Of a stretch of 64,000 nucleotides of DNA, positions 2,505 through 26,653 are shown in pieces. Source of the DNA: Flavobacteriales bacterium. GTDB taxonomy: Bacteria; Bacteroidota; Bacteroidia; Flavobacteriales_F; PHOS-HE28. The first letter of the stretch is position 1. Each line of letters starts with the position of its first letter. The notes below the pieces were generated by a model, which did no database searches, was not told the DNA's origin, and saw only the letters and a program-made list of their open reading frames with translations. Position numbers and translations under genes: made by a program. The DNA lies in NCBI GenBank assembly GCA_041747675.1, contig JBGTES010000002.1, forward strand, positions 66,538 through 130,537. The letters are read 5' to 3'.

Positions 2505-3596
2505 TCAACGGGCCGTGATGCCACGCGTGTCCATTGCATCACGCAGGCCATTGCCTACCAGCATGAAGGCCAGGGTGAGCAGCATGATGCACACGCCGGG
2601 CAATAACGCCAGGTGCCAGAGCTCGGTGGTGATGTACGGGTAGTAGCTGCGGATCATACCGCCCCAACTGACCATGGGCAGTTGCGCGCCTATGCCAAGG
2701 AAGCTCAAGCCCGCCTCCATGAGGATCGCCGTGGCGAAGTTCGCCGCGCTGATCACGATCACCGGGCCCATCACATTGGGAAGGATGTGCCGGAAGATGA
2801 TGCGGCCATGGTCGTAGCCCAGCGCCCTTGCAGCCTCCACATATTCCATCTCGCGGGTGCGGATCACTTCGCCGCGTACGATGCGCGCCACCTCCACCCA
2901 CATGGTAAGCCCCACGGCGATGAATACCTGCACGAAGCCCTTGCCGAGGGCGAGCGTGATGGCGATCACCAGCAAGAGTGTGGGAATACTCCAGATGACA
3001 TTGACCAGCCACATGATCGCATCGTCCACAGGCCAGCGGATGCGGCGGCCAAAGATCCGGAAGGTGGGCGCCTCGGCCCGGAAGTACCCCGCCAGGGCAC
3101 CGAGTGGAATACCGATCAGCAGGGAGATCAGCACAGCGATGAGACCCACGCTGAGACTGATCACCGTGCCGGCCATCAGGCGGCTCAACACATCGCGGCC
3201 GAAGCTGTCGGTGCCGAGCAGGTAGTACCGTTCTTCCAGGTCGTGACCCGCTGGCGCATGGATGCGTTCCAAAGTTCCGGGTACCAAGGCATTGTAGCCG
3301 TTGAAGCGCTCGAACACCACACTGTCCCCCACCGTGTGAAGGCGGTGCACTGGGACCACCTCCGGATGACCCGGAACGATCAGGAAGCGCGCACGAGATC
3401 CGGGTGACTGGTCCCTGATCTCCAAAACCTGCTGATTGGCCCATGGACTGCTGTCCGGCCGGATGACCCTGCCGAGCAATGCCACCACCACGGCGATGCC
3501 GATCACCACGAGCCCGGCCACGGCATTGCGGTCGCGCAGCAGGCGGTGCAGCGCGATGCGCCACAGGCTTTCACTGACGTGTCGGGTGGAGCTCAA
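2505..3596 (-). CDS. ABC transporter permease (DppC/OppC-like binding-protein-dependent family)
   Basis: Six TM segments and an EAA-like loop (EAARALGYDHGRIIFRHILPNV). Overlaps the upstream GT2 gene by 4 nt. Confidence 0.8.
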   Translation of the reverse strand: MSSTRHVSESLWRIALHRLLRDRNAVAGLVVIGIAVVVALLGRVIRPDSSPWANQQVLEIRDQSPGSRARFLIVPGHPEVVPVHRLHTVGDSVVFERFNGYNALVPGTLERIHAPAGHDLEERYYLLGTDSFGRDVLSRLMAGTVISLSVGLIAVLISLLIGIPLGALAGYFRAEAPTFRIFGRRIRWPVDDAIMWLVNVIWSIPTLLLVIAITLALGKGFVQVFIAVGLTMWVEVARIVRGEVIRTREMEYVEAARALGYDHGRIIFRHILPNVMGPVIVISAANFATAILMEAGLSFLGIGAQLPMVSWGGMIRSYYPYITTELWHLALLPGVCIMLLTLAFMLVGNGLRDAMDTRGITAR

Positions 3597-4765
3597 ACGC
3601 GGCGGCCTTTCCAGGTAGGACGGACGAAGATCGACAGCAGGGCGATGACCGGCGCGTAGATCAGGAACGCCGCCAGTGCGGGCAGGGTGAAGAACGGTCC
3701 ATCTCCGGCCCTTTGCACTCCCTCTCCCGCAGCAAGCAGGTAGGATCGTTCACTGACACCCGCCAACCGCAACACGGGGAACAACCAGGCCAGCCACGCG
3801 GCGGCCAGCAGCGTCGCTGTGTAGAAGAGGCCCTGCCCTACCTGCACATGGCGGGCCACCCAAAGCGATAGGAAGGCCAACGACCACGGGAGGAGCAGCG
3901 CGGCCACAGCGCCGACCAACGCGCCCAGGTCCTGGTATGCGCGCATCTTACCGGCCCAGCGCGAACGTTGCGCAAAGAAGGCCCCCCATCCTGATACAGG
4001 CGCCGTGTGGACCACCACCTCCGGCTGTGCAAGGCCATCCACCGCAAGTCCGTGTGCGCGCATGCGGGCCAGCAGGAACATGTCATCGCCACTTGCGAAC
4101 CGCTCACCGGCATAGCCTCCCACACGTTCGAAGGCCTTCCGCGAGAATGCCATGTTGGCCCCATTGGCCAGCAAGGGCCCATTGACCAGCACACTGCCCA
4201 TGGCCACGCCCTGCAGGGCCGCCTGCTCCTTGCGTTGCAACCAGGCCACGATGCCCGATCCGCCGATGGTATGCACGGGCATCAAGAGCATATCCGGGCC
4301 CGCGATCTTCCAATACGCGGCGATACACCCCAACCGTTCCGGTCCACAGCGCACATCAGCATCGGTCATCACCAACACCTCGCCACGCGCCTGTTCCACT
4401 CCCGCTGCGATGGCCGCTTTCTTACCCACCTCCTCCGCGAGGGAAAGGACCCGCAATTGGGGCCAGCGCTCCGCCATGCCCTCCACCAGCGCCACCGTTC
4501 CATCGCTGCTGTGATCGTCCACCACCATCACCTCATATGCATCTTTGGGATGGGTCTGCGCATACAAGTCCTGGAGCAGGGGTCCGAGCGTGTGCGCAGC
4601 GTCACGCGCCGGCACGATCACGCTAAGTATGGCGGAGGTCCCTCCCGGATCCCGCACCGGTATCACACGCTCCCCGATGATGGCTCTGTACCAACGGTCC
4701 AGCATCAGGGCATGGATCAGCGCCATCCCGAACGCCAGCATGGCCAGTGACATCTCCATGCTCAT
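3593..4765 (-). CDS. Family 2 glycosyltransferase (membrane-bound GT-A)
   Basis: SVIVPARDAAHTLGPLLQDLYAQTHPKDAYEVMVVDDHSSDGT plus DAD motif and C-terminal TM helices. Start moved to internal ATG (MSMEMSLAM...) so the gene abuts the upstream stop rather than overlapping 90 nt. Confidence 0.7.
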   Translation of the reverse strand: MSMEMSLAMLAFGMALIHALMLDRWYRAIIGERVIPVRDPGGTSAILSVIVPARDAAHTLGPLLQDLYAQTHPKDAYEVMVVDDHSSDGTVALVEGMAERWPQLRVLSLAEEVGKKAAIAAGVEQARGEVLVMTDADVRCGPERLGCIAAYWKIAGPDMLLMPVHTIGGSGIVAWLQRKEQAALQGVAMGSVLVNGPLLANGANMAFSRKAFERVGGYAGERFASGDDMFLLARMRAHGLAVDGLAQPEVVVHTAPVSGWGAFFAQRSRWAGKMRAYQDLGALVGAVAALLLPWSLAFLSLWVARHVQVGQGLFYTATLLAAAWLAWLFPVLRLAGVSERSYLLAAGEGVQRAGDGPFFTLPALAAFLIYAPVIALLSIFVRPTWKGRRV

Positions 4766-5814
4766 GGAACAACGCGATCGTTGGTCCGGATGCGGGCCAT
4801 GACCAGGATGAAGCTGCCGAGTATCGCAGGCAGCACCAGGTTGATGGCCCACAGCGCCGTGGTGGCGAGGAGCACCGGACCATGAGCGGCACCCAGCGGA
4901 GCGAAGAACGCCAGTGCCGTGCTACCCCGCACGCCCAGTTCGGTGAGCAGCACGGTGGGCACCAGCGTAGCCACGAGGTACACCACGGGGATCACCAGCA
5001 ATGTCACCGAGGTGGGAACACCCACATGGAAGGCACGGCACAACAACAGGAACTGCAGCGTGAAGACCATGTAGCGAAGGGCACTCCATGCCAGGATCAC
5101 CACCAACTCGCGCATTTCATAGGAGTTCAGTACAGCGGATGCACGCTCCAACCGTCGCAGCAGTGGCAAAGAGATCAACACCTGGCGCAGCAAGGCGGGG
5201 AACAGGTAGAGCAGCAATGTACCGGCGGCAACGAGCGTGGTAAGGGAGACCAGTGCGACCGAGTACCAGCCATCCGGCCAGGGCATGGGGTGGGCAAAGA
5301 CCATCAACAGGACCAGCGCTGTGCCGCCCGCCAACATGGTGATCACGAATTGCGCGATGCTGCCGAGTGCCGTAGCGAATCCACCCGGTACACGATTGCC
5401 AGGAGCAAGGAAGAGCACCCTGCCAAGGAATTCACCGGTCCGGTTGGGCGTGACCAATCCGATGCTCGTACCAGCTATGGTGGCTGTGAAGGCACGCCAC
5501 GCACCGACGGGCTCCAGGCCATGTACCAGACAACGCCACTTCCGCGCCTCTATGCCCCAATTCACGGGCACCAACAGCAGGGCCAGGCCCATCAGACGCA
5601 GGGCTGGAGCATCGCCAGGCAATGCCTGTAGCACCTGGAGGGCCTGAGTACCTTTATCCGCACGCAGCTGCCACCACAGGAATAAACAGGCCAGCAGGAA
5701 GATCCCCCAACGGAAGAGCAACAGCAACGTGCGGCCGGAAATGATGGATGACAAGGAAGCGGGCCTTTCGGCCAAAAGTAGGCGCGGGCCATCCGAGCGG
5801 ATCATCCTGGGCAT
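4762..5814 (-). CDS. Polytopic membrane protein, lysylphosphatidylglycerol-synthase-TM-region / flippase-like (UPF0104-like)
   Basis: About 8 TM helices, arginine-rich loops, and co-oriented with the GT2 gene. Start uncertain: GTG at 5829, ATG at 5814 or 5805. Confidence 0.5.
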   Translation of the reverse strand: MPRMIRSDGPRLLLAERPASLSSIISGRTLLLLFRWGIFLLACLFLWWQLRADKGTQALQVLQALPGDAPALRLMGLALLLVPVNWGIEARKWRCLVHGLEPVGAWRAFTATIAGTSIGLVTPNRTGEFLGRVLFLAPGNRVPGGFATALGSIAQFVITMLAGGTALVLLMVFAHPMPWPDGWYSVALVSLTTLVAAGTLLLYLFPALLRQVLISLPLLRRLERASAVLNSYEMRELVVILAWSALRYMVFTLQFLLLCRAFHVGVPTSVTLLVIPVVYLVATLVPTVLLTELGVRGSTALAFFAPLGAAHGPVLLATTALWAINLVLPAILGSFILVMARIRTNDRVVP

Positions 5815-6751: not shown

Positions 6752-7224
6752 CAGCGGCTGATCTCGATGATCTCGAACCGTGCGCTACCAGTGGGGGTGG
6801 CCACCTCGGCGATCTCGCCACGTGCCTTGCCCAACAGGCCCTTCCCGATGGGCGAGCCCACACTGATCTTGCCCACCTTGATGTCCACCTCGGTCTCGGC
6901 CACCAGGGTGAATTCGCGTTGTGTGCCGTTGTCCACGTGGCGCACCGTGACCCGCGAATGGATGAACACACGCGAATCATCCAACAGGGAGGGGTCGACC
7001 ACGCGGGCATTGGCCAGCTGTTCCTCCATCTTGGCGATGCGTGCCTCCAGCAGACCCTGTTCCTCCTTGGCGGCGTGATATTCCGCATTCTCGCTCAGGT
7101 CACCCTTGTCGCGTGCATCGGCGATCTGCTGGCTCAGGTGCGGGCGATCCACGGTCCTCAGATGATGCAGTTCCTCCTGCAGCTTCCGGAGACCCTCCTC
7201 GGTGTAGTAGGCCGGTGTGCTCAT
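6751..7224 (-). CDS. greA: Transcription elongation factor GreA
   Basis: MSTPAYYTEEGLRKLQEELHHLRTVDRPHLSQQIADARDKGDLSENAEYHAAKEEQ... ATG verified at 7224-7222. The 270-aa track ORF is an upstream extension. Confidence 0.85.
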   Translation of the reverse strand: MSTPAYYTEEGLRKLQEELHHLRTVDRPHLSQQIADARDKGDLSENAEYHAAKEEQGLLEARIAKMEEQLANARVVDPSLLDDSRVFIHSRVTVRHVDNGTQREFTLVAETEVDIKVGKISVGSPIGKGLLGKARGEIAEVATPTGSARFEIIEISR

Positions 7225-7330
7225 GGTATGTCCGCCTGGATCCGGCGTGGTGTTGCAACGAATGGAACGGTGGGGTGGATAGCACGGAAGAGGACCCCGA
7301 AGGGCCCTCTTCCCAAGGTGTGTTATGTGC

Positions 7331-8386
7331 TCAGAGCGTGATCCGGAGACCGATGCTGTGCACGCCGGCAAAAGGGTTGGTGGCGCGGTATCCATAATCG
7401 ATGGCCAGGGCGGACTTCTTCTCATCGCCGAAGGGGAAGTCCACACTAAGACCTGCCGAGGGGCCGGTGAATACCGTGGTGCGCTCCGCATCGTCTGTGA
7501 TGCCATCCTCATAGAGGTAACCTGCCCGCAGGTGGAACATCTTACGGAAGGCGTACTCCACACCCACGATCCCCTGGTCCTTCGTGAAGGAATTCGACAC
7601 GAAGGTGCCGGCGAAGGAGAGGCGGTGCATGTCGCTCACATGCCAGTCATATGCGAAGCCGATGGTGAGCAATGAGGGGATCTCGAAATGGGCAGAGCGC
7701 TGCTCTAGTGTAAGCTGGTCACTCCCCTGCACCAACAGTCCCTGTACCGAAAGACCATCACCGGCGAACTGCATCGCGGGTCCCACATTCTTCAGTGCGA
7801 TGCCGAAGTGCACATTGTCCATCGGACCGGTCACATACTGGATGCCAGCATCGAAACAGATCCCGCTGGTTCGCACATTGGAGATCGCCTCGGACACAAC
7901 ACGCACGAGCATGCCGCCATGGATACTATTCGAAAAGCTTTTCGAGTAGGATACCCCGATGTTCGCCAGGCTGGGGCTGAAGGTTCCCCGGCCTCCCTCG
8001 GGTACATCGACGGTGGTCACCTCCAATTCGCCGAAGGACATGGTGGTCGCACTAAAGCCCAGCACTCCGGACGCGCCCACCTTCTGGCCCAGGCCCACAC
8101 TGTTTATCTGCACCCCGGAACCTGAGAGCCAGGTGGTGTTGGTGAAGAGCACCTCTGTGCGGTTCACATGGGCCAGGCCGGCGATGTTGCCGAACATGGA
8201 CTCCACACCGCGTATGGAAGCGGTATTCGCCAAACCCCAACCGGCCGATCGCGCCCAGGGATTGATCAGAAGTTGGGTGGCCCCTGCCGACCCCGCACGG
8301 TGGGTTTTGCCCGCCCTGGGGGGTACGGTGGCCTGGGCCACCAGGGCCGCGATCATGGCGGCCGGCCGTTTCATCGTTCGCATCAT
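7331..8386 (-). CDS. porV: PorV-like (LptO) T9SS outer-membrane shuttle protein, FadL-like beta-barrel
   Basis: Signal peptide. N-terminal INPWARSAGWGLANTA ... NIAGLA motifs resemble the PorV signature (PDARSGGMG...NPAGLA). C-terminal beta-signal ...IGLRITL. Lies immediately downstream of a large CTD-bearing protein, matching the conserved porU-porV arrangement. Confidence 0.55.
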   Translation of the reverse strand: MMRTMKRPAAMIAALVAQATVPPRAGKTHRAGSAGATQLLINPWARSAGWGLANTASIRGVESMFGNIAGLAHVNRTEVLFTNTTWLSGSGVQINSVGLGQKVGASGVLGFSATTMSFGELEVTTVDVPEGGRGTFSPSLANIGVSYSKSFSNSIHGGMLVRVVSEAISNVRTSGICFDAGIQYVTGPMDNVHFGIALKNVGPAMQFAGDGLSVQGLLVQGSDQLTLEQRSAHFEIPSLLTIGFAYDWHVSDMHRLSFAGTFVSNSFTKDQGIVGVEYAFRKMFHLRAGYLYEDGITDDAERTTVFTGPSAGLSVDFPFGDEKKSALAIDYGYRATNPFAGVHSIGLRITL

Positions 8387-8422
8387 CTCGAGCTTCCTTA
8401 TGGAGAGTGGTAGTGCTTGTGC

Positions 8423-11400
8423 TTAGAAATTCTGCAGATCGAGTGGCCTGAGCGTGCCGAACCATTTGATCACTTTCTCGCCCACGTTCGGAACATCCAC
8501 ATGGCATATGTACACTCCGCCCGCGATCGGGATGTTGTTGGCATTCTTCAGGTCCCAATCCAGGTAGGTGAGGTCATTGTCCTTGCGGAACTTCCGCACC
8601 AGCGTGCCGCTCACGTTGTAGATCGAGATCGTACACGTTTGCGGCAGGTTGATGAACTTCACACGGTTATCCAGGCGCGAGGTCTCATAGCCACTGAAGG
8701 CATTGTAGGGGTTGGGCACGATGTTGATCATGGCCAAGGCCTCATTCGCTACTTCGGCCACACCGGTCTCCGTGGCGAAGCCGAGCGTGCTGAACCCATA
8801 CAGCGGCAGTCCATTGTTGCGCTCGGGCTGGATCGGGGAGAGTGAGCCCGGGTAATCCACATACCGCGTGTACTTACGCTCCACGTTCAACACGATGCGC
8901 ACATCGGTCTCCAGCAGTTGGCGACCGGGTGCCACCATGGCGCTGCCCACCCAGCCCACGGCACGGAACACACGGCGCAAGGGTTCTGGCTGGGTGCTTT
9001 GGATGGTCTGGTAAATGAAGCGACACTCGTCGTAACCCGGAATACGCTGTTCGGAGTTGGCCACACCGGCCGACTGGCGACGATCGTTCTTGAACACATA
9101 GATCCAGTGACTTCCGCCGAAGACAGGTTCACCAGCCCCGGTGAGCAGTTCATCGCTGGGATTCCAGATCATGTCACGTCCGATCTCACCACCCCAGAAA
9201 CTGTTCTCCCCGTAAGCCATGTTCAGGCGCTCACCGGTCTCCAGGTCGATCGCATAGCCAGGGAACCAACCGGCACCCGTGGGTTGCTCACCGCCCAGGG
9301 TGGCTTCATCGTTGTTGGCCCCGGGAGTACCGGCTTTGCGGCCGTCCTTGTCGATGCTGGGTGAGGCACGCAGCTGCAATTTACCCGCACCACCTTCGCT
9401 GAGAGCGGTATTGTCCTCCTGCTCCAGCACCACCGCACGGCTCCACTTGCTCTTGTCCTTGGTGATCACCAGTTGGATGCTCGGGGTCTCATGCAGGAAG
9501 GATGCGCTATTCTGAGTGAGGGAGACCTGCTGGTTGTTGCTTGGCTGGAATGGCGCCTGGCCCACCAGTGCCCACGGCGCCCATGTACCGCCCAGGATGT
9601 TCTCGTACCACTGCTGGTCATCACGACCAGTACGGTCATTGTAGATGGGAACATCAGGGAAGGTCTGCGTGCCGGAGCGGATCCAGTTCTGGTCGATCGG
9701 ACCCTCTGTGTCCGGAATGCCCGTGAACCAGGGCTTGGAGGGATCCTGGAAAGTGATCGTCCCCGTGCCGATCGGACGCGTGGTCGAGTTGTTGTTCCCA
9801 TCGCGGGGGTAGTTCACCTGGCCGATGGTCACCGAGATGCCCCAGTCTGGCAGCAACTGCTCATACAGCAGGTCGATCGCCCGATCACTGTTCACTGTGA
9901 CCCCGGAATTCAGGTTGGTGATGTACCAGTACGCATCATCGAGGTTGCCCGGCGTGGCCGTATCCTGGAACCAGACTTCGAATGCTGCCTCTGGCACGCT
10001 CAAGGGGTCCACGATCTTCACATCGATCGGGCCGGCATTGCGCCGATAGAGCAACTCGTCGCTCCGCCAGGGTGGCCCGGCCATGATGGCATTCTCGGAC
10101 TCCGGTGTCAGTTCGAGCCGCAGGCCACCATTGCCCGCACCCTCGTAGCGCGTCACCTGCAGACGATCGCCGAACTGGGCGTTCTGAATGGTGCCGCCGT
10201 TGGCCGGGTCGGGTTTGTGGGGGATACCCACATAGGAGCGGATCGCCCCGAAAGCGGCCTTGCGGCCTGCCACATACCGGAAGGCCTGCCCTGTTCCTCC
10301 GAATGGGTCGAACTCCTCGAAGTTGTTGTAGCCGTATGTGATTGCCAGATAGTAGTAGGATTTGAAGTTCACCAGACGGCGGTCGCCTTGTGCGAACTCG
10401 TCCTCCGTGATCTGAATGGCGTGCTCGATGCCTTCATCTGCTCCGGCCACCATCTCACGCGGCACGGTCAGGTCCAGGGTCGGATCGTAGAGGTAGTTGA
10501 TGATCTGCCCCACCCCATCCTCTACGTCGGCCTGGTACACCAACCGAGCCTTGGATACATCCTCGATATCGGACACGCTCACCGTGGCATCCTTCAACTG
10601 GTAAAGCTTGTAGCCCTGGAAACGGTAGAACCGGTCGTACGGATTGCCATCCACATCCTCCTCAGGGATCGTGGGGTCCAACTCCTCGTACATCTCGTTC
10701 TCGTTGTTGCTGCCCGGCGGATTGATCAGATAGATGACCAACTCGCGGTCGAACTCACGTATGTCCAGATCAGGTGCGTCAGGGCCATCCAGGATCTTGA
10801 AGCAATTGTCGAACAGAGCCTGGGCCTTGTCATCGGCCAGGCGCAGCAATTCCACACTGGCCACTGCCCCTCCTTGCGAGGCACGGGCGTATACCACACC
10901 CACGGTCACGTTGTTGTAAGCACCAGGTTCCAGGGTGAAAGGGCCTGCACTTTGGGCGAAGCGGCGGTCCGGCTGGGCGGGCGTCTGCTCCAATTCACGC
11001 CAGTCCGCCTGTGGTACGCAATCGGTACCCCAACCCACCGGGTCGGAGCTCCAGGGGAACATGTAGAAGGCCCGCGTAGCGTTGGGGTCCTCGCTGTATC
11101 CGTTGCCACCGTAGCTCTGTGGGCGGTTGTTCTTCCAGATGGAACGCAGGTAGTTGTAAAAGTGCGTAGCGTTGGATGGGTCGGTCAGGTTGGGATTTCC
11201 CTCGCGATTGAAGTAGATGAAGGCGCGCATGCCGAAGCGCTCATTATCCGCCTTGCCATCGCCATAGCCGATGCCGATACCGCCGTATGGGATGCCACCC
11301 AACTGCTGGTATTCCTGGCAGCTCAGGTTTTGATCCGGGCCCGGGTTATCAGTGCCGTCATAATCCTGGAAGGGACCCTCGAAGAAGTCGACCCCGATGG

Positions 11401-12526
11401 CAGGGGGCGGCGGGGCGGGGCCTCCATAACCCACAGCACCCAGGCAGGGCTCGTCCACATCACTCCAGTTGTAGCAGAACCCAAGACCACGCTGAACGTC
11501 GCAACCCGTGAAGTCATCATTGGAGCAGCCCACATCCGGGTCCACGAAGTGGCCGAAGTAGGTGTTCAACAAGGTCTGGGTACCGCGGTTGATGACCACG
11601 TAGTTGTAAAAGGTCATGTTGTTGATCTCATCGTTCGAGTTGAACGAAAAGCCCTGGGCCTGCACCTCCAGGCCGATGGGCTGGCCCTGGGTCTCGGTAT
11701 GCACGTTGCCCTTGTCATTGAAGATCCAGTAGATATTGTCATCGCCGAACAAAGGCACAGGATCCTCACGCTCTTTCCCCTTGCAGTCCTCCACCGTGAG
11801 GTTGAAGCCGTAGTCCGGATAGTCGCCTGCGAATGGGTCATAGAAACCGTCCACATCCCAGTCCACAAAGGGGGCCAGATAGAGGGCCTGCCCGGCATCC
11901 ACGTTGCCCATGGCGGGCCAGGTGATGAAGTCCGGTGGTATCGAATAACCGTTGGGGAAGATGACATCCAGGTCGCATTCGGGATCTTCGCTGCACAGTT
12001 TCCACTGGATATGTGCTTCGGCCTGCGTCCGCTTGGTCTGCCAGAAGCGGTCGTATTGCAGACACACGTCGAAATCCACCGAGGCATCACCGGTCACGGT
12101 AAGAGGCCCGGGCCAGAAATCATTCCGGCCCTGCGCGCGGTACAGCACCGCGGCGATCTTCAACTGGTTGTCGGGCGAGAGGCCACCCATCCAAAGTGCA
12201 CCGGCATAAATGGCATTGGGTCCGCTGAAGTCCGGGGTCTTAGGCACCTCATATCCGGAGCGGCCGGAGGCCCGGCGGGTCCATTTGTTGCCGCCGTTCT
12301 CGATCACCGCGCGCACGTTGTTGAAATTCAACTGTGTGATGCGGCTTGCCGGCGAGCAACTGGCCGCCTTGCCCAGATTGGGTGGCGGTGGTGGCGGTGC
12401 CCCCGAGGTGGCGGGCGGTGCAATGGCCCAGGCATGCATGCCCAGGGACACGGCGAGGCTCAGAGCGAAGGTTCTGGTGAGGAGCGCGCTTTGAAAGCCT
12501 TTCATGTTGTGTGGTCGTTTTAGCAT
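8423..12526 (-). CDS. Large secreted T9SS-CTD protein, candidate PorU-like (C-terminal signal peptidase family)
   Basis: 1367 aa with signal peptide. C-terminal 90 aa (NPYNAFSGYETS...ISIYNVSGTLVRKF...WDLKNANNIPIAGGVYICHV...KWFGTLRP) resembles a T9SS CTD, closest to type B. The gene sits directly upstream of the PorV-like gene. Peptidase C25 motifs could not be verified by eye. Confidence 0.45.
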   Translation of the reverse strand: MLKRPHNMKGFQSALLTRTFALSLAVSLGMHAWAIAPPATSGAPPPPPPNLGKAASCSPASRITQLNFNNVRAVIENGGNKWTRRASGRSGYEVPKTPDFSGPNAIYAGALWMGGLSPDNQLKIAAVLYRAQGRNDFWPGPLTVTGDASVDFDVCLQYDRFWQTKRTQAEAHIQWKLCSEDPECDLDVIFPNGYSIPPDFITWPAMGNVDAGQALYLAPFVDWDVDGFYDPFAGDYPDYGFNLTVEDCKGKEREDPVPLFGDDNIYWIFNDKGNVHTETQGQPIGLEVQAQGFSFNSNDEINNMTFYNYVVINRGTQTLLNTYFGHFVDPDVGCSNDDFTGCDVQRGLGFCYNWSDVDEPCLGAVGYGGPAPPPPAIGVDFFEGPFQDYDGTDNPGPDQNLSCQEYQQLGGIPYGGIGIGYGDGKADNERFGMRAFIYFNREGNPNLTDPSNATHFYNYLRSIWKNNRPQSYGGNGYSEDPNATRAFYMFPWSSDPVGWGTDCVPQADWRELEQTPAQPDRRFAQSAGPFTLEPGAYNNVTVGVVYARASQGGAVASVELLRLADDKAQALFDNCFKILDGPDAPDLDIREFDRELVIYLINPPGSNNENEMYEELDPTIPEEDVDGNPYDRFYRFQGYKLYQLKDATVSVSDIEDVSKARLVYQADVEDGVGQIINYLYDPTLDLTVPREMVAGADEGIEHAIQITEDEFAQGDRRLVNFKSYYYLAITYGYNNFEEFDPFGGTGQAFRYVAGRKAAFGAIRSYVGIPHKPDPANGGTIQNAQFGDRLQVTRYEGAGNGGLRLELTPESENAIMAGPPWRSDELLYRRNAGPIDVKIVDPLSVPEAAFEVWFQDTATPGNLDDAYWYITNLNSGVTVNSDRAIDLLYEQLLPDWGISVTIGQVNYPRDGNNNSTTRPIGTGTITFQDPSKPWFTGIPDTEGPIDQNWIRSGTQTFPDVPIYNDRTGRDDQQWYENILGGTWAPWALVGQAPFQPSNNQQVSLTQNSASFLHETPSIQLVITKDKSKWSRAVVLEQEDNTALSEGGAGKLQLRASPSIDKDGRKAGTPGANNDEATLGGEQPTGAGWFPGYAIDLETGERLNMAYGENSFWGGEIGRDMIWNPSDELLTGAGEPVFGGSHWIYVFKNDRRQSAGVANSEQRIPGYDECRFIYQTIQSTQPEPLRRVFRAVGWVGSAMVAPGRQLLETDVRIVLNVERKYTRYVDYPGSLSPIQPERNNGLPLYGFSTLGFATETGVAEVANEALAMINIVPNPYNAFSGYETSRLDNRVKFINLPQTCTISIYNVSGTLVRKFRKDNDLTYLDWDLKNANNIPIAGGVYICHVDVPNVGEKVIKWFGTLRPLDLQNF

Positions 12527-15500
12527 CAGAAATCGAAACGTACACCCAGGCGGATCTGCCGGGGCAGGCCAAAGTTGAATGGGTTCTGCACCTTGGTGGT
12601 GTAGAGGTCACGGAAAGCATTGGGGTCCACCTGGCTGGTGTCGGTGAGCAGGGCCAGGAAGCCGTCGTTGTCCGGTGAACCGGTGAAACGGTACACGTCG
12701 ATGGTATTCCGCGTGTTCAACACGTTGGTCACCAGCAGGAAGATGTTCAGGTTCGCACTCTTGGCCTTGTCCCCTTCACCACCGAAGCTCAGCGGGATGT
12801 CGCGATCGATCTGCATGTCGGTCGTGAACTGCCATGGGAGTCGGGCACCGTTGAGCGAGCCATCCAGGCGGTAGTTGCCGCTACCGGCTCCTTCGTTCAC
12901 CACCTGAAGGCTGCGGCTGTACGGTGTGCCGCTGCCCAGGATGCTCACCACGTTCACACCGGTGCGCTGTAAGATCGCTTTGTCGAACAGCATCGGGCCG
13001 TTGTAGTCCTTTCCACCGCCATAGCGGAAGTCCACGGTCATCTGGAAGCGATGACGCTGGTCGAAATCAAGTGGTGAGATGGTGCGCAGGTTCGGCTGCC
13101 CGGAGTTGATCAGGTTGATGCCCGTATTGGGGCCGGAACCTGTTCCATCGGCGAACTGCAGGGTGTAGCCCAGGCGCATCCACACGTTGCCGGTCCGGCG
13201 CAGATCGTAGCTGGTGCTGAAGCCCTTCACGGTACCGAAATCGAAGTTGTCGTAGGTGCGATAGTCACGCGGCCAGGCGTTGAGCACATTGCGGATCTGG
13301 ATCTGGTCGCGCAGTTCGCGATAGAAAGCCGAGATCTTCAAAGAAGAACTCTTGGACAACACCTGCTGGAAGCCCAATTCGTAGTCGATGGTCTTCGTGG
13401 GCCGCAGGTTCGGGTTGGCAAGGATGTCGCCGGTGTTCTCGATGTAGGAGAAGCCGATCAGGTCCAGGCGGCTCTGCAAGGCATTGGGGCGCTGGGTCAA
13501 CACGTCGTAGTGGGCGAAGAACACGGCCTCATCGCTGATCGGGAAGCTGAAGGCGATCCGGGGCATGATATTCACCGCCGGGGAGTAATCCCGGAAAGCT
13601 TCCTTGCTCAGGTTGGAACCGATCAGGCTGCCCGCCCCTCCCCCGTCGATCAGGTAGGGCTGGATGATCCCGCCTTCCTGCAGGCTCGTGCCGTCCGCGA
13701 GTTCCACACCAGTGGCGCTGTACCACACGTCGCCGTCGCGGTAGCCTTTAATGATGTTGGCATTCTCCAGATTGTCCACATACACCACGAAGTCGTCGCC
13801 GATGTTGCCGGGGCGATTGGCCAGTTGGTTGGCGATATCGCTGTTGGGCACAGCTGATCCAGCCGTCCAGGCATCCTGCCAGAGATACTTATCCTTCAGC
13901 ACGTTCTGGTTCGCATCATAGCGGTCCACCCGCACACCCACGTTGAAGATGATGTCGTCGAAGGCGAATTTGTCCATCACATAGCCGGCCATGTAGATCG
14001 GCTGGAAGGGGGCCTGCACGCGGGTGTACTGTCCATTCCCGTCCTGCTCGTCGAAGAAGCTGTTGAAGCTGGGACGGCCGGTGAGACGGTTGCCGAGGTA
14101 ATCATAACCCACATAGCTCACCAGATTGTTGCCATCGTTGATCAACTCGTCCGGTGAGAACATATCCAGCGAGAACACGCTGGGGTCCAGTGCGTCCACG
14201 TCGATGAAGTCGAGCCCATTGGGGTCCAGGCCCAGTGCTTCACGCAGACTGCGATCGAAGAAGCGCTGGTCGTCCCCCCTGTTGCGGGAATAGAAGTAGA
14301 ACGGGAAGGGGCTGCCCGGTACCTGTACGATGCTCGTGGGCAGTGTATCCTGCCATTCCTGGATGTGGAAGTTCGCCAATTGACGTGCACGGGTCCATAG
14401 ACCCACGGGGGCCAGGTCGTAGCGTCGCTGGCTCAACTGCTCGTATTCCACACCCACCGAGATCGCGTGCTGTCCGATGTCGGCACTGCCGGCCGCAGTG
14501 AAGCGTACCTGATCGTTCTGGCGGCGGCGGAATTGTGCACCATTGGGGTCGTCGATGAAGCCGATGTTGTTCCACAGATCATAGAGCGATGCAGGGCGCA
14601 TGCCATTCCACAACACGCCGCGCTGCACCGTCTCCTGGAAATTCTGGTAGAAACCAACGTAGTTCGGGTCGCTGCCGGCCTCGGCTCCGAAGAGTTCCTG
14701 GATGGGGAACTGCTCGGGCGCGAAGGCATTGAAATAGAAATTGTTCACGGCGGCCAGGTCGGGGTTCTGTGTGCCCGGGGTGAAGGTCACCAGGGTGTCG
14801 CGCAAGCCCACCTGGTCCCAGCGGCCGTTGCGGAATTCGAACTGCGGGGCCCGGTAAATGTCGAAGCGGCCTACATATCCGTAGTCGAAGAAGCGGTCAC
14901 CGTGGGTGAAGTCCTCCACATTGTTCTGGTAGCGCGAGTAATCGAGCTGCAGGGTATAAAAGGCGTTCTGGATGGTGGCCCTGCGCTCTTCCTGCTCGGT
15001 CCTGTTCTGGAAGCGCTGTGTGAACCTCACGAAGGCACGCCAGGTGCTTTCTTTAATGCGTGTGTTATTCTCCGCGTTCAGCAGTGAATTGCGGCGGTTG
15101 TACACCTGGCGGTTACCGTAATCGAGCGACCCGCCCACACTGAGATTGATGGTGGGTGTGGTGGTGATGTCGATCTTGCCCGATGCCAGATAACTCAATT
15201 CCCCGGCGTTCTGGCGGGTGGGTACCGCCTCCAGGTCATTGAAGCGCAGGTATTCGCTGCTATAGACCATGGTGAAATCATTCACCCCACTCTGGAACAG
15301 GCGCGCGGGATTCTCCAGCAGGCCGTCACGCACCTCAGGCTTCACGCGCACATCACCATCGAACAAGGGGCGACCGTCCACCACGTTGGTGTACTGGCCG
15401 GATAGGAAGAAGCCGATGAGCGGACGGGTCTTGTTCCCCACACTGTCCTTCTTGAACAGCAGCGGACCCGAGAGGCTCGCCTCGAGCTGGTTGAATCCGT

Positions 15501-16278
15501 ATTTATCCAGGCCGTACACGTTGGCTATGTCATCACCGAGTTTGAATCCTGATGTAAGGTATTCCATCCCACCGAAGAAATTCCTGCTCGGACCACGTGT
15601 GGTGATGTTGATCAAACCACCGGTCACATCACCATAGTTGGCGGGCACGCCGCCGGTGATCACCTGCACTTCCTCGATGGCGCTCTTGGGCAGGCCGATA
15701 CCCGCACCGGCGGGCACCTTCACACCATCTATATAGTAATAGGTGTTCTCCGCACGTGCTCCGCGGATGCTGATGCCACCTCCCGTACCCGCATCGCTTG
15801 TACCAGCCACGGTGGTGGCGATGGATGCTGCGGAACGGCCGGGCATCTTGGCGATGTCCTCCCGTGTGACGGTACCTCCGCTGGCACCACCATCCCTGTC
15901 GATCAGCGGTACGGTATACTGGATCACCTCGAATTCCTTGAGCTCGATGCCCTGGGTGAGCTTGAGATCAAGGAAGGTGATGCGGTTGGCGCTGACCACC
16001 ACCCCCACCTGCTTGTAGGGTTGGTAACCCACATAGGTCACCACCACATCATACGAGCCGGGGTCGATCGGCTTGATGTCATATGCACCGTTGAAGTCCG
16101 AAGCGGAACCGGTGACCTGCTGACCACCGCGCTCGAGCACGACGTTCACGAAGGGCAACGGCTCGCCGGACTTGTTATCGGTGATCTTGCCCCTGAGACT
16201 GCCGGAACCCACCTGGGCTTGCAGTGTCATCACCAAAGGGAACAGGGCGATCGTGGAGAATAGCCTTCTCACCATCAA
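12526..16278 (-). CDS. TonB-dependent-receptor-like outer-membrane protein with N-terminal carboxypeptidase-regulatory domain
   Basis: 1250 aa. Signal peptide, CarboxypepD_reg-like N-domain (GSLRGKITDNKSGEPLPFVNVVL), plug-like region (ISIRGARAENTYYYIDGVKV...EVQVITGG), long beta-barrel ending ...LGVRFDF. Its stop overlaps the next gene's start by 1 nt. Confidence 0.7.
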   Translation of the reverse strand: MMVRRLFSTIALFPLVMTLQAQVGSGSLRGKITDNKSGEPLPFVNVVLERGGQQVTGSASDFNGAYDIKPIDPGSYDVVVTYVGYQPYKQVGVVVSANRITFLDLKLTQGIELKEFEVIQYTVPLIDRDGGASGGTVTREDIAKMPGRSAASIATTVAGTSDAGTGGGISIRGARAENTYYYIDGVKVPAGAGIGLPKSAIEEVQVITGGVPANYGDVTGGLINITTRGPSRNFFGGMEYLTSGFKLGDDIANVYGLDKYGFNQLEASLSGPLLFKKDSVGNKTRPLIGFFLSGQYTNVVDGRPLFDGDVRVKPEVRDGLLENPARLFQSGVNDFTMVYSSEYLRFNDLEAVPTRQNAGELSYLASGKIDITTTPTINLSVGGSLDYGNRQVYNRRNSLLNAENNTRIKESTWRAFVRFTQRFQNRTEQEERRATIQNAFYTLQLDYSRYQNNVEDFTHGDRFFDYGYVGRFDIYRAPQFEFRNGRWDQVGLRDTLVTFTPGTQNPDLAAVNNFYFNAFAPEQFPIQELFGAEAGSDPNYVGFYQNFQETVQRGVLWNGMRPASLYDLWNNIGFIDDPNGAQFRRRQNDQVRFTAAGSADIGQHAISVGVEYEQLSQRRYDLAPVGLWTRARQLANFHIQEWQDTLPTSIVQVPGSPFPFYFYSRNRGDDQRFFDRSLREALGLDPNGLDFIDVDALDPSVFSLDMFSPDELINDGNNLVSYVGYDYLGNRLTGRPSFNSFFDEQDGNGQYTRVQAPFQPIYMAGYVMDKFAFDDIIFNVGVRVDRYDANQNVLKDKYLWQDAWTAGSAVPNSDIANQLANRPGNIGDDFVVYVDNLENANIIKGYRDGDVWYSATGVELADGTSLQEGGIIQPYLIDGGGAGSLIGSNLSKEAFRDYSPAVNIMPRIAFSFPISDEAVFFAHYDVLTQRPNALQSRLDLIGFSYIENTGDILANPNLRPTKTIDYELGFQQVLSKSSSLKISAFYRELRDQIQIRNVLNAWPRDYRTYDNFDFGTVKGFSTSYDLRRTGNVWMRLGYTLQFADGTGSGPNTGINLINSGQPNLRTISPLDFDQRHRFQMTVDFRYGGGKDYNGPMLFDKAILQRTGVNVVSILGSGTPYSRSLQVVNEGAGSGNYRLDGSLNGARLPWQFTTDMQIDRDIPLSFGGEGDKAKSANLNIFLLVTNVLNTRNTIDVYRFTGSPDNDGFLALLTDTSQVDPNAFRDLYTTKVQNPFNFGLPRQIRLGVRFDF

Positions 16279-16525
16279 CGGAAAGGTTTAGCGTTCAGCG
16301 AAACAGCGCAACGAGGGGGCGTAAATATAGGAAGATCCCGGATCGGCAAAAATTTCTGTGTACTGCAGGAAAGGCCTATTCCCCTAAGGATCGCCGGGGG
16401 GCCATGGTCCGTTGAGGGGCGCGTCCTGCACATGGGGCGGTGATCTGGGGGAAAGATATTGGTAACGATCGCCAAGTCCGTTCGCGATGGCCTGCCAACA
16501 TCATTCTATACTATACACCTCCGAG

Positions 16526-16822
16526 CTACCGCTTGCGGTTGAAGAGCCGGCCCGGGAAGCGGTCGCGATGTGCGCCGATGCCACCACGCTCGGCCCGTCT
16601 CTGATGGCGTTTCAGGCGTTTGCGCGTGTCCTTGTCCTGGATGGCGAGATGCCGTTTCCGATCCTCCTTCTCCTTGGACTTCTTCGCCTTGGCATCCTCC
16701 TTCGCCTGGCGTGCCTCGTTCTTCTCGAACTGCTTGCGGCTGACCCCCTCCTGGGCGTTCAAAAGCACAGGGGCTCCCAACAGAAGGGTGTGGATCAACA
16801 GGAAGTGGAGTGTGTGACGCAT
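16526..16822 (-). CDS. Small secreted lysine/arginine-rich protein (hypothetical)
   Basis: Signal peptide MRHTLHFLLIHTLLLGAPVLLNAQE followed by a low-complexity K/E/R-rich tail. Weak coding evidence. Confidence 0.3.
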   Translation of the reverse strand: MRHTLHFLLIHTLLLGAPVLLNAQEGVSRKQFEKNEARQAKEDAKAKKSKEKEDRKRHLAIQDKDTRKRLKRHQRRAERGGIGAHRDRFPGRLFNRKR

Positions 16823-16898
16823 GGGATGGTGCAAGGATAACGCACGCCAGGGGCGTTCGCGCATACCTAACTTCGCGTCACCGCGTTACTGCCTGCGC

Positions 16899-17333
16899 AT
16901 GACCAGCTCCACCCTGTTCCGCATCATCATTCTATCCCTGCTGGCAGGCGTGCTGTTGTTCGGCTGCAAGAAGGACCGCCCGGGTGGGGTGCCATTGACA
17001 CCTGTGGACGTCAGCATCAACATCAACAATCCCTCCTATGCGGACCTGGCCGTGCCGGGGGGCTGGCTCTACCTTACCGGCGGGTCCATGGGCATCATCG
17101 TGTACCGCAAGTCCATGAGCGAATTCGCCGCAATGGACCGCCACTGCCCCTACCAGCCGCAGGACCTGTGCAGGGTGTATGTGGATGAGAGCGAGGTGAT
17201 CGCGCGCGATACGCTATGCTGCGGATCGTCCTATCTGATCATGGACGGCAGCGTGACACAGGGCCCCACCGCACTACCGTTGCAGCGATACAACACGTCA
17301 TTCAACGGGACGACACTACGGATCTACAACTGA
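16899..17333 (+). CDS. Hypothetical lipoprotein
   Basis: Lipobox LLFGC (MTSSTLFRIIILSLLAGVLLFGCKKD), then a Cys-rich 120-aa domain. Confidence 0.4.
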   Translation: MTSSTLFRIIILSLLAGVLLFGCKKDRPGGVPLTPVDVSININNPSYADLAVPGGWLYLTGGSMGIIVYRKSMSEFAAMDRHCPYQPQDLCRVYVDESEVIARDTLCCGSSYLIMDGSVTQGPTALPLQRYNTSFNGTTLRIYN

Positions 17334-22660: not shown

Positions 22661-25063
22661 TCACCACCGCACCACCACCCCGCCCAGCACATGGAAGGGC
22701 GCCTGCGGGAAGAGGCCCACCATGTCCTGGCGTGTTCCGCCTTCGACGAAGCTGTACACCCAGCCGTTGTTCTCGTACAGCTCGCTGAAGAGGTTGCGCA
22801 ACGTGAGGTTGAGGTCGATCGATCGCATGCCCTTGAAGCGCAACAGCGATACGTTGAAGCGCAGGTCGTGTACCAGGAAGGGATCCAGCATGCGGTCGCG
22901 GCTGGCGGTGTTGTCCAGGTACTGCTCGCCCACGTACTTGGTCACGAAGGCCACATCGCCCTGGCCCTTCCCGGGCTTGTCCCAGAAGCGGAAGCCCAGC
23001 TCGCTGCCTACGACGATCGATGGCGAGAAGGCGATGTCCGTGTCCCCCACTGCGCGCTCCACCTGCCCGCCATTGTCCCAGTCATCGAGGAACTCGGTGA
23101 AGCCCTTGATGCGGTTGCGGCTGAAGGCGGCGTTGGCGCGCCACACCAGCCGGCGTGTGAGTTGCGTGGTCCAGGTGAGCTCGGCGCCGGCACGGTAGCT
23201 CTCGGACACGTTGGTGCGCAGCGGATAGCCCACGTCATTCAACTCACCTGTGAGAACCAGCTGATCGGTGTAGTCCATGTAATACAGGTTGATACCCCCG
23301 GCGAAGCGGCCGCTGCGGCGCTCGTAGCCCAGCTCGTAGTCGATCATGCGCTCGTGTGTGGGACGGCTCTGCGGGCTGCTTTCGATCAGGTCGCGGCGAT
23401 TGGGCTCGCGGTTACCCACGGCCACGCTGGCATAGACGCGGCCTCCCTCATGCGCCTTCCATTGCACACCGCCCTTCGGGTTGAAAAAGGTCCAGTCGGC
23501 CTCCTGCGTCACGTTCTCCAGGTCGTTGTTGAAGCCAAGGAAGTCGTGCGTGACGGTGCGCAGCTGTGCATCGGTGAAGAGATCCACACGATCGTTGACC
23601 ACATAGTTGAACTTGGCGAAAGCATTGCCGTCCGTCTTGGTGCCTGTGTTGTCGTAGTAGCGTTCGCGGATGTCACTTTCACCGGCCCAGCGCGCCCAGA
23701 TCACCTCGCCGAAGTGGTCGTTGCTGTAGTGGCTGTAGCTGCCGCCCAGCACCAGCTTGTGCGCGCCCAGGCGCTGCTCCAGCGTCACGTTCACGCCGTC
23801 CAGCGTGTTGTCCAGCCAGCGGCGGCGGATCAGGTCGCTCCGCGTGATGGTGGTGTCTCCGACAACGATCGGTGTGATGCCATAGTTGCTCAAGGGATCG
23901 TCGTCCCGGAACTGCTCAAAGAAGCCCGTACCCAGTACGCGGAACAGGGTGATGTTGAGGTTGGCGTGCTCACTCAGTTCCTGGTCGAAGAGCAACTGGT
24001 AATGCGTCTGCTGGTAGTCGTCCACCTGGTTGTCGTAGTTGTAAGGATTGAAGGTGCGGTTGGTGTCAAGCACTTCGCGTGGCACGCCTTCCCAGGCCTG
24101 GTAGGTGACCTCCTTGCCGCTCATGGTGAAGAAGCGCAGCGAACGTTTCTTGCCCAGCCATGCCGCCTGGAACTGGTAGCTGCGCAGGTCAGCGGTGGCG
24201 CGATCGATGTAGCCGTCGCTGCTGATGCTGCTGAGCCGTCCATCGATGGAGAAGGCACCCGCTTCGCCGCCCTGGTTCATGAGCCCCGTGCCGAAGCGCG
24301 CGTTGTAGCGCTGCGTGTTGAAGCTGCCTCCGAAGGCGCTGATCTCGCCAAAAGCTTCCTTGCGGATGGCCGCGCTGCGCATGTTGATGCTGGCCCCGAA
24401 AGCGCCCGGCCCGTTGGTGCTGGTGCCCACGCCACGCTGGATCTCGATGTCCTCCAAGCCGCTGGCCAGATCGGGCATGTTCACCCAGAACACGCTCTGG
24501 CTCTCGGGGTCGTTGATGGGCACACCGTTGAGGGTGACGTTGATCCGTGTGGCATCACTACCGCGGATGCGCAGGCCGGTGTAGCCGATGCCCGTGCCCG
24601 CATCGGTGGTGGTGACCACACCGGGTTGCTGATCGAGCAAGATGGGCAGGTCCACCCCGGTGTTGATGCGGTCCAGTTCCTCGCGCGTCACCTTGCTCAC
24701 GGCGAAGGGCGCACGGTCGCCAGCGCGCAGTGCGGTCACCTCGGCCTCGCGCATCAGCACCAGGTTCGGCAGCATACGCAGGTTGAAGCTGTTCTCGCCG
24801 GAGGCAAGCTCAAGCAACGTATCCACCGGCAGGTAGCCGATGTACGACAACCGAAGTCGCAGTGCGCCGGAACGCAAACCGCCGATGGCAAAACGGCCTT
24901 CACGGTCGGTGCTGGTGCCGAAGCGTTGTTCATCGCCCACGATGAGGCTCACGCCATCGAGCGGGGAATCGCCTTCGCCGGTGATGGTGCCCGAAAGGCG
25001 TGTCTGGGCGTGCGTGGAAAGGGCCAGCAGTGTGGCCGCGAACAGGGTGTACATGATCTTCAT
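22661..25063 (-). CDS. TonB-dependent receptor, candidate thiamin / thiamin-derivative outer-membrane transporter
   Basis: 800 aa. Signal peptide, CarboxypepD_reg-like N-domain, plug (TQRYNARFGTG...), beta-barrel ending aromatic ...VVVRW. ATG verified at 25063-25061. Immediately preceded by a TPP riboswitch. Confidence 0.85.
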   Translation of the reverse strand: MKIMYTLFAATLLALSTHAQTRLSGTITGEGDSPLDGVSLIVGDEQRFGTSTDREGRFAIGGLRSGALRLRLSYIGYLPVDTLLELASGENSFNLRMLPNLVLMREAEVTALRAGDRAPFAVSKVTREELDRINTGVDLPILLDQQPGVVTTTDAGTGIGYTGLRIRGSDATRINVTLNGVPINDPESQSVFWVNMPDLASGLEDIEIQRGVGTSTNGPGAFGASINMRSAAIRKEAFGEISAFGGSFNTQRYNARFGTGLMNQGGEAGAFSIDGRLSSISSDGYIDRATADLRSYQFQAAWLGKKRSLRFFTMSGKEVTYQAWEGVPREVLDTNRTFNPYNYDNQVDDYQQTHYQLLFDQELSEHANLNITLFRVLGTGFFEQFRDDDPLSNYGITPIVVGDTTITRSDLIRRRWLDNTLDGVNVTLEQRLGAHKLVLGGSYSHYSNDHFGEVIWARWAGESDIRERYYDNTGTKTDGNAFAKFNYVVNDRVDLFTDAQLRTVTHDFLGFNNDLENVTQEADWTFFNPKGGVQWKAHEGGRVYASVAVGNREPNRRDLIESSPQSRPTHERMIDYELGYERRSGRFAGGINLYYMDYTDQLVLTGELNDVGYPLRTNVSESYRAGAELTWTTQLTRRLVWRANAAFSRNRIKGFTEFLDDWDNGGQVERAVGDTDIAFSPSIVVGSELGFRFWDKPGKGQGDVAFVTKYVGEQYLDNTASRDRMLDPFLVHDLRFNVSLLRFKGMRSIDLNLTLRNLFSELYENNGWVYSFVEGGTRQDMVGLFPQAPFHVLGGVVVRW

Positions 25064-26548: not shown

Positions 26549-26653
26549 GGGTCGAGGTGATCGGTGCGGTGGCCACAAGATAACTTTCCACCACAGGCAG
26601 GCAGCGGAACGCCCATCCCGCGCGTCGATGGAATAGACCCTGACCCCGGTACC

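Follow-up and report, generated by a model that had tools for sequence, protein, structure and literature searches.

The surface lipoproteins SusD, BtuG and XusB serve as partners of transporters in the Bacteroidota. Other surface proteins are type IX secretion system (T9SS) substrates, among them PorU and PorZ, whose C-terminal domains (CTDs) are not cleaved and which stay bound to the barrels PorV and PorQ; such cognate PorV-like barrels have been proposed to shield the CTDs from cleavage (PMC10202324; PMC10947112; PMC12365241). In Porphyromonas gingivalis, PorZ keeps its atypical CTD, which docks on a 14-strand barrel that is dedicated to it and belongs to the PorV/PorQ superfamily (PMC10947112), and for proteins with type-B CTDs a cognate carrier barrel is the rule, encoded beside its own uncleaved-CTD cargo in SprB-SprF and PG1035-PorP (PMC10202324). 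PorF is a TonB-receptor-like protein whose deletion phenotype groups with those of the porQ and porZ deletions (PMC12704123). Here we describe a three-gene operon in a 64,000-nucleotide stretch of a Flavobacteriales genome (contig JBGTES010000002.1, positions 66,538 to 130,537; hereafter the window) that would join a pair of this known kind, a cognate PorV-like barrel and a protein with a probably retained CTD, to a TonB-dependent transporter. This union is the new element: the literature that we searched contains no description of the trio, of the family of its middle protein, of PorV-like paralogs of this kind or of a complex between a T9SS cargo and a TonB-dependent transporter.

The three genes lie on the minus strand. 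Gene 1 (16278..12526, 1250 amino acids) encodes a TonB-dependent-transporter-type outer-membrane protein with the C-terminus ...RLGVRFDF, gene 2 (12526..8423, 1367 amino acids) a secreted protein of an uncharacterised family, and gene 3 (8386..7331, 351 amino acids) an outer-membrane barrel of the PorV/PorQ superfamily that belongs to a new clade, which we call T. The open reading frames (ORFs) are those given in a preliminary description of the same DNA, with some adjustment of their boundaries. The likely start of gene 1 is the ATG at 16275, one codon past the TTG. At the junction of genes 1 and 2 (TGATG), the longest ORF of gene 2 does share one base with the stop codon of gene 1, as had been reported, although this start is probably not the one used. 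Met8 of gene 2 (ATG 12505-12503) does not vary in the family alignment, and it is there that the family consensus begins; in the 52 syntenic loci the signal-peptide-bearing start lies 11-95 nt (typically 19-35) past the transporter stop, and the overlapping ATG is absent from the close relatives L008, L009 and L012. Because Met8 is invariant and the starts of relatives lie where they do, a spacing of 20 nt is most likely, with a gene 2 product of probably 1360 amino acids. The one-base overlap is thus most likely an artefact of taking the longest ORF, and it is the close coupling of the two genes that is conserved, not the overlap. Genes 2 and 3 are separated by 36 nt, not by the 37 nt counted before, and by typically 16-55 nt across syntenic loci.

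On the minus strand of the window, the genes of the trio are not separated by any terminator-like site. A terminator-like hairpin, read from the sequence, follows gene 3 on the same strand (7286..7313); its GC-rich stem of 12 bp includes one G.U pair and carries a UUCG loop. A candidate promoter of the Bacteroidota type (16322..16350, minus strand; TTTG, 17 nt, TAtaTTTa), named for its motif resemblance only, precedes the gene 1 start by about 45 nt. A sigma-70 promoter scan is uninformative for Bacteroidota. Given the close spacing, the lack of an internal terminator, the hairpin after gene 3 and the conserved gene order, the three genes form one real operon of ancient conservation, and the tightly coupled outer-membrane operon of the preliminary description stands. 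The window has a GC content of ∼60%, and gene 2 carries an antisense ORF of 1016 amino acids (9473-12523, plus strand) that is typical of high-GC coding sequence and is not a gene.

We compared the locus by tblastn of the three proteins with 82 loci from different species, many of the incomplete loci ending at contig edges. The full trio is found in the same order in 52 of them, spanning Flavobacteriales and Bacteroidales down to 43% identity, and recurrence of the order in so many different species is beyond chance. Conservation of the transporter together with gene 2 extends to 60 of the 82 loci, with gaps of typically 19-35 nt, down to 42% identity. The gene 2 family is present in at least 587 GTDB species genomes (Bacteroidota), and its carriers are mostly Flavobacteriales outside the Flavobacteriaceae (Crocinitomicaceae, Cryomorphaceae, Vicingaceae, Parvicellaceae and Fluviicola) with further members in the Bacteroidales and Lentimicrobium; the trio itself occurs in genomes of Fluviicola, Cryomorpha and Lentimicrobium. 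Gene 2 proteins share 43-87% identity across orders, and gene 1 proteins 42-77% across 51 loci.

Gene 1 has a genuine TonB-dependent-transporter fold comprising an N-terminal extension, a plug and 22 strands, which bears out its earlier recognition as a giant receptor-type barrel lying outside the described T9SS core. A signal peptide (read from the sequence, cleaved between ...LQAQ and V) is followed by a CarboxypepD_reg-like extension (residues 27-108, 15955..16200, minus strand; PF13620 55.7 bits, PF13715 49.7 bits) and by a linker and plug (plug residues 135-228, 15595..15954, minus strand; PF07715 36.3 bits, with the Pfam Plug match at 135-221), and relatives of gene 1 match the barrel model PF00593 (TonB_dep_Rec). 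An AlphaFold2 (AF2) model of residues 112-1250 (predicted local distance difference test, pLDDT, 75; predicted template modelling score, pTM, 0.75) has exactly 22 strands of at least 10 residues, so that a plug within a 22-strand barrel, the hallmark of these transporters, is present. Foldseek searches with the model returned ∼200 chains of TonB-dependent transporters (best E 1.7e-17), including PirA, OprC, Cir, BtuB and XusA. Conservation within the protein is highest in the linker and plug (top-residue frequency 0.71 and 0.75), and the conserved, strand-like LKEFEVIQY between extension and plug (residues ∼113-121) is a putative TonB box. Approximately 450 extra residues are located in extracellular inserts, three of which (B, D and F) come close to the membrane strands in conservation (0.61-0.69 versus 0.69 in 51 orthologs), giving mild support to a fixed protein partner.

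Gene 1 has no match to a SusC/RagA-type model among the NCBIfam models at E<=0.01, and no SusD-like gene adjoins it, its neighbor being gene 2, which lacks a SusD domain by Pfam. We also compared it by BLASTP with the PorF sequences of P. gingivalis, Weeksella and Parabacteroides (supplement of PMC7323717). The alignment is confined to residues ∼12-230, which comprise the extension and plug (24-27% identity, E 1e-7 to 1e-9); the barrels do not align and gene 1 is ∼420 amino acids longer than PorF (∼800-830 amino acids), and we reject the idea that it is a PorF ortholog. The window contains a second, ordinary TonB-dependent receptor of 800 amino acids (22661-25063, minus strand) with CarboxypepD_reg, plug and barrel and a clean PF00593 match; it too was rejected as a PorF ortholog in the BLASTP comparison.

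Gene 3 belongs firmly to the PorV/PorQ superfamily, matching the subfamily model NF033709 with 135.1 bits (cutoff 90) over residues 35-350, which cover positions 3-325 of the 326 in the model. It falls far below the equivalog cutoffs for PorQ (NF033711; 63.4 bits versus 220), PorV (NF033710; 52.2 versus 250) and PorV2 (28 versus 325), and has no match at E<=0.01 to the PorP/SprF models TIGR03519 and PF11751. The earlier designation as a PorV-like, FadL-type barrel is therefore right as to relationship and wrong if PorV itself is meant. We placed 20 trio barrels together with curated PorQ and PorV sequences and one PorV2 (from locus L060) in a neighbor-joining tree and scored them with reciprocal hidden Markov models (HMMs). 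The trio barrels cluster tightly in a clade of their own, apart from PorV, PorQ and PorV2. They score 508-569 bits on their own HMM, on which PorV, PorQ and PorV2 reach 18-59 bits; on the PorV HMM they score 32-76 bits versus 507-603 for PorV, and on the PorQ HMM 46-73 versus 395-469 for PorQ. Mean distances from the trio barrels to PorV (0.86) and PorQ (0.92) are like that between PorQ and PorV (0.89). By these sequence comparisons, T is a fourth clade, separate from PorV, PorQ, PorV2 and PorP/SprF.

The gene 2 protein has a type-I signal peptide (cleaved between ...GMHAWA and IAPP) and no lipobox, so it is not a lipoprotein. Pfam finds no domain in it, even at E<=1 across 20 family members, and searches of the PDB with the sequences of all three trio proteins, the family profile and the CTD alone gave no match. 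An AF2 model of residues 50-1249 (pLDDT 88.9, pTM 0.73) is mostly beta, and its Foldseek matches in the PDB (best E 1e-4, TM score 0.17-0.22) show a weak beta-supersandwich likeness to the glycoside hydrolases and phosphorylases of the GH15-like, GH94 and GH116 families. The (alpha/alpha)6 domain of these enzymes is missing from the model, for which reason we make no enzyme assignment, and judging from the model the body is without a close solved structural relative. The preliminary description had taken gene 2 to be PorU-like. Neither it nor its 20 relatives match Peptidase_C25 or T9SS_sortase (NF033707) at E<=0.01, on a test in which the PorU2 of L060, used as a positive control, scores 205 and 705 bits; no HEXXH motif was found in gene 2, and there is no protease among the Foldseek matches of its model. 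The PorZ equivalog model NF052228 gives 16.6 bits (cutoff 260) with the match restricted to the CTD region, and the 50 PDB matches listed by Foldseek do not include the PorZ structure 5M11. Two queries returned over 3,300 and over 5,900 homologs, respectively, which the sources name only "T9SS C-terminal target/sorting domain-containing protein" or "hypothetical protein"; some are named type-A sorting-domain proteins by NCBI.

The C-terminal ∼100 residues of gene 2 (1265-1367; 8426..8734, minus strand) can be identified as no more than a divergent CTD of the T9SS type, with a type-A-like layout (VPNPY ... GVYICHV ...) and an invariant C-terminal extension (...RPxDLQNF), so that the earlier view of a CTD-bearing protein holds in this restricted sense. 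TIGR04183 gives 17.1 bits (cutoff 23) and matches 7 of 20 family members below threshold; PF18962 does not match gene 2 and reaches one of the 20 at E 0.12; and the type-B models TIGR04131 and PF13585 have no gene 2 match at E<=0.01. The best curated match is to the CTD region of the PorZ model (E 2e-3; 9 of 20 members, best 5e-5). This divergent domain is nevertheless the most conserved part of gene 2, with a top-residue frequency of 0.76 versus 0.61 in the body and an entropy of 0.88 versus 1.50. In an exhaustive HMMER search with the CTD against 1.84 billion representative sequences, each of the best 150 of 3,457 matches (E<=1e-33) is either a full-length member of the gene 2 family or a colinear fragment of one, and judged from these 150 the domain appears exclusive to that family. 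Such hyper-conservation and family exclusivity would be unexpected for a disposable, cleaved sorting signal and expected for a retained domain with a fixed partner. The window also encodes two canonical Por_Secre_tail CTD proteins scoring above threshold (26564-28504 and 40073-41611, plus strand), from which it follows that the organism uses a T9SS; an HMM of the family CTD fails to recognise the CTDs of these two proteins, and its best, though weak, match is the CTD of PorU2.

Loci in which the trio is incomplete show that gene 2 is the hub, linked independently to each barrel. In L034, a gene 2 paralog and a T-clade barrel (NF033709 124.9 bits; PorP/SprF 16 bits, cutoff 90.55) occur with an unrelated helicase upstream and without the transporter, whereas on the same contig L036 has transporter and gene 2 followed by an RND (resistance-nodulation-division) efflux system and no barrel of the gene 3 type. 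Transporter and gene 2 likewise occur without this barrel in L077, where a superoxide dismutase gene follows, and in L079 and L080. Gene 2 paralogs that stand alone make up another syntenic class, which always has a RecB-like helicase upstream (L029, L031, L034, L038, L039, L045, L050 and L055; gene 2 homolog at ∼8000-12100) and usually lacks both barrels, with the CTD kept at 56-66% identity. On a Vicingaceae chromosome (L060, 13381-19657), genes for PorV2 (NF052325, 514 bits) and PorU2 (NF052324, 705 bits), a putative second T9SS sorting system, adjoin a gene 2 paralog; we consider this association coincidental because it occurs only in L060 and recurs in no other locus.

We propose that the three genes encode one outer-membrane module. 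The gene 2 protein would be exported by the T9SS and its CTD, probably uncleaved, docked on the dedicated gene 3 barrel in the way that PorZ docks on PorQ. So tethered, it would work with the gene 1 transporter, most likely as an extracellular capture or lid component, and would correspond in function to the lipoproteins SusD, BtuG and XusB, while being delivered by the T9SS instead of by lipoprotein export. We give this composite mechanism about an even chance of being correct. The broader suggestion that the module exemplifies a third route to stable surface machines, besides attachment to anionic lipopolysaccharide (A-LPS) and PorP/SprF carriers, is more tentative, and we would put it somewhat below even.

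The module resembles PorQ-PorZ in what we propose for it, namely a T9SS surface protein whose retained, atypical CTD is docked on a dedicated barrel of the PorV/PorQ superfamily. Unlike PorZ, which consists of two beta-propellers and a CTD, gene 2 has an unrelated body of ∼1,200 amino acids; the gene 3 clade is separate from PorQ, and the pair shares its operon with a TonB-type transporter. With PorV-PorU it has in common a PorV-superfamily barrel beside a large CTD-bearing protein and, as proposed here, retention of the CTD, but not the C25 sortase domain or a barrel of the PorV clade. The logic of SprB-SprF and PG1035-PorP, a cognate carrier barrel encoded beside its own uncleaved-CTD cargo (PMC10202324), would also apply to the trio, whose barrel belongs instead to the PorV/PorQ superfamily and which has no TIGR03519, PF11751 or TIGR04131 match. 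Like SusCD, BtuB-BtuG and XusA-XusB, the trio has a large TonB-dependent transporter with an N-terminal extension encoded directly beside a large extracellular partner, and XusA is among the structural matches of gene 1; gene 2 differs from the lipoprotein partners in lacking a lipobox and in having a CTD and its own proposed anchor barrel, and the locus differs in lacking a SusC-type match and a SusD neighbor and in occupying a fixed core position rather than a variable polysaccharide-utilisation locus. PorF (PG0534) shares with gene 1 the order of CarboxypepD_reg-like extension, plug and barrel, a link to the T9SS and an N-terminal region of ∼230 amino acids, and differs in its smaller size and in a barrel without significant alignment.

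The gene greA (6754-7224, minus strand, start at 7224) lies directly downstream of the hairpin and trio. It is immediately downstream in 41 of the 43 full-trio loci with enough flanking sequence, down to 43% gene 2 identity, an adjacency across Flavobacteriales and Bacteroidales that is unusually persistent for bacteria so distant. A few kb downstream, genes for an MprF-flippase-like protein (LPG_synthase_TM, 4786-5733) and a glycosyltransferase of family GT2/GT21 (3596-4630), both on the minus strand, recur in 25 of the 43 loci, including distant orders (for example L064 14909-17073 and L073 14888-17025); the pair could reflect a link to a surface glycolipid or plain core synteny. The rest of the immediate neighborhood consists of housekeeping genes. 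The trio is thus a vertically inherited core locus, unlike the variable polysaccharide-utilisation loci. Directly upstream of gene 1 and on the same strand is a gene for a secreted protein of ∼100 amino acids (16526-16864, minus strand) that combines a signal peptide with a body extremely rich in K, R and E; it has no Pfam match, is kept in the relative L001 (5667-5966; 54% gene 2 identity) and might be part of the trio's transcription unit. A putative lipoprotein of 170 amino acids (16821-17333, plus strand; LLFGC lipobox) with Cys-rich motifs and no Pfam match is encoded divergently from the trio.

Several observations weigh against a T9SS-delivered capture module. The body of gene 2 offers no functional clue, with no Pfam match and TM scores of only ∼0.2, and its CTD is below every curated CTD threshold. 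Approximately 15 gene 2 paralogs stand alone without either barrel. In the AF2 model of gene 1 the plug region (residues 112-228, 15595-15945) has a pLDDT below 45 despite the Pfam Plug match, which may be an artefact of removing the N-terminal extension or may point to an unusual plug. The locus is core-like, with a single position, greA beside it and a conservation above that of typical nutrient-uptake loci, and this fits a housekeeping role in the envelope at least as well as nutrient capture. Lastly, it is by extension from the systems above that we infer the surface exposure, T9SS dependence and CTD retention of the gene 2 protein, the contact among the three proteins and the direction of import.

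In a serious rival reading, the trio is a T9SS accessory module analogous to PorF-PorZ-PorQ of P. gingivalis that acts at the late attachment stage, for example in handling a cargo-anchoring glycolipid or glycan, and not in nutrient uptake. The gene 2 CTD does match the PorZ model best, the N-terminal 230 amino acids of gene 1 are nearer PorF (E 1e-7 to 1e-9) than is the window's other TonB-dependent receptor (4.5e-2 to 2.5e-4), and the recurrent greA and flippase-glycosyltransferase neighbors would suit such a role. Beyond these regions, however, the likeness fades: only the extension and plug of gene 1 align with PorF, the gene 2 body is not PorZ-like (16.6 versus 260 bits, and no 5M11 among the listed Foldseek matches) and gene 3 lies outside the PorQ clade. 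Moreover, normal-sized orthologs of PorF, PorQ and PorZ have been reported throughout the Flavobacteriia (PMC7323717), so that the originals are probably present in these lineages, and we consider the rival unlikely. We find it slightly less probable again that genes 2 and 3 are simply a cargo and carrier, a T9SS-delivered adhesin or surface-layer protein on its cognate barrel in the manner of SprB-SprF or PG1035-PorP, with the transporter functionally unrelated or merely co-transcribed. L034, with gene 2 and barrel only, the stand-alone gene 2 paralogs and the general association of type-B CTD proteins with cognate carriers (PMC10202324) speak for such a pair. Set against them are the co-conservation of transporter and gene 2 in 60 of 82 loci, the four loci in which these two occur without the barrel (L036, L077, L079 and L080) and family membership itself, since neither a PorP/SprF barrel nor a type-B CTD is present (no match to TIGR03519 or TIGR04131); at that level a PorP/SprF carrier with a type-B CTD is rejected.

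The preliminary description had favored a PorU-PorV sortase and attachment complex with an extra barrel. Membership of gene 3 in the PorV/PorQ superfamily and the CTD-like tail of gene 2 are compatible with this, PorU also keeping its CTD (PMC10202324), yet a real pair of this kind, the PorU2/PorV2 of L060, scores 705 and 514 bits on its models, whereas gene 2 and 20 relatives show no C25 or sortase signal and no protease fold and gene 3 reaches 52 of the required 250 bits on the PorV equivalog and sits in a separate clade. The absence of the defining C25 domain, the failed PorV equivalog and the separate clade refute the identity, and we leave this reading next to no chance. The same description had a fallback should gene 2 lack a C25 domain and the barrel score as PorP/SprF, namely a SprB/SprF-type pair with a generic TonB-dependent receptor upstream. 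The C25 domain is indeed absent and the pair logic survives; the barrel is not PorP/SprF, and co-conservation with gene 2 sets the upstream transporter apart from a generic one. A looser suggestion of that description, in which the large barrel is an additional outer-membrane partner or has a part in recognising cargo, may yet be right. A last alternative is that gene 1 works outward, as proposed for Oar of Myxococcus, exporting or assembling the gene 2 protein, with the CTD as a docking domain and not a T9SS signal. We take the N-terminal-extension architecture to be common to gene 1 and Oar-type transporters, and the gene 2 CTD, unlike the canonical CTDs of the same genome, is under all T9SS CTD thresholds. 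Gene 3 nevertheless belongs to a superfamily known from the T9SS only, NCBI labels gene 2 relatives as T9SS sorting-domain proteins, and a plugged 22-strand barrel would be an unlikely conduit for a folded 150-kDa protein; export by gene 1 is accordingly very improbable.

A family with thousands of members, a Pfam-less body of ∼1,200 residues, strong conservation and a fixed core locus marks an important unstudied function of the cell envelope, which has been neglected probably because the carriers in our sample do not include the well-studied genera Bacteroides, Flavobacterium and Porphyromonas. The PorV/PorQ superfamily is known to shuttle or anchor CTD proteins, and a fourth clade with an apparently exclusive CTD extends the idea that a cognate barrel protects and holds the CTD, so far a hypothesis in the T9SS literature. 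Linking such a pair to a TonB-type transporter provides a concrete hypothesis for the as yet unexplained contribution of PorF-like transporters to T9SS biology, and likewise for nutrient uptake that depends on the T9SS. If the proposal of a T9SS-delivered module is true, the trio would be a natural, operon-encoded model of how PorF-type transporters cooperate with PorQ/PorZ-type pairs.

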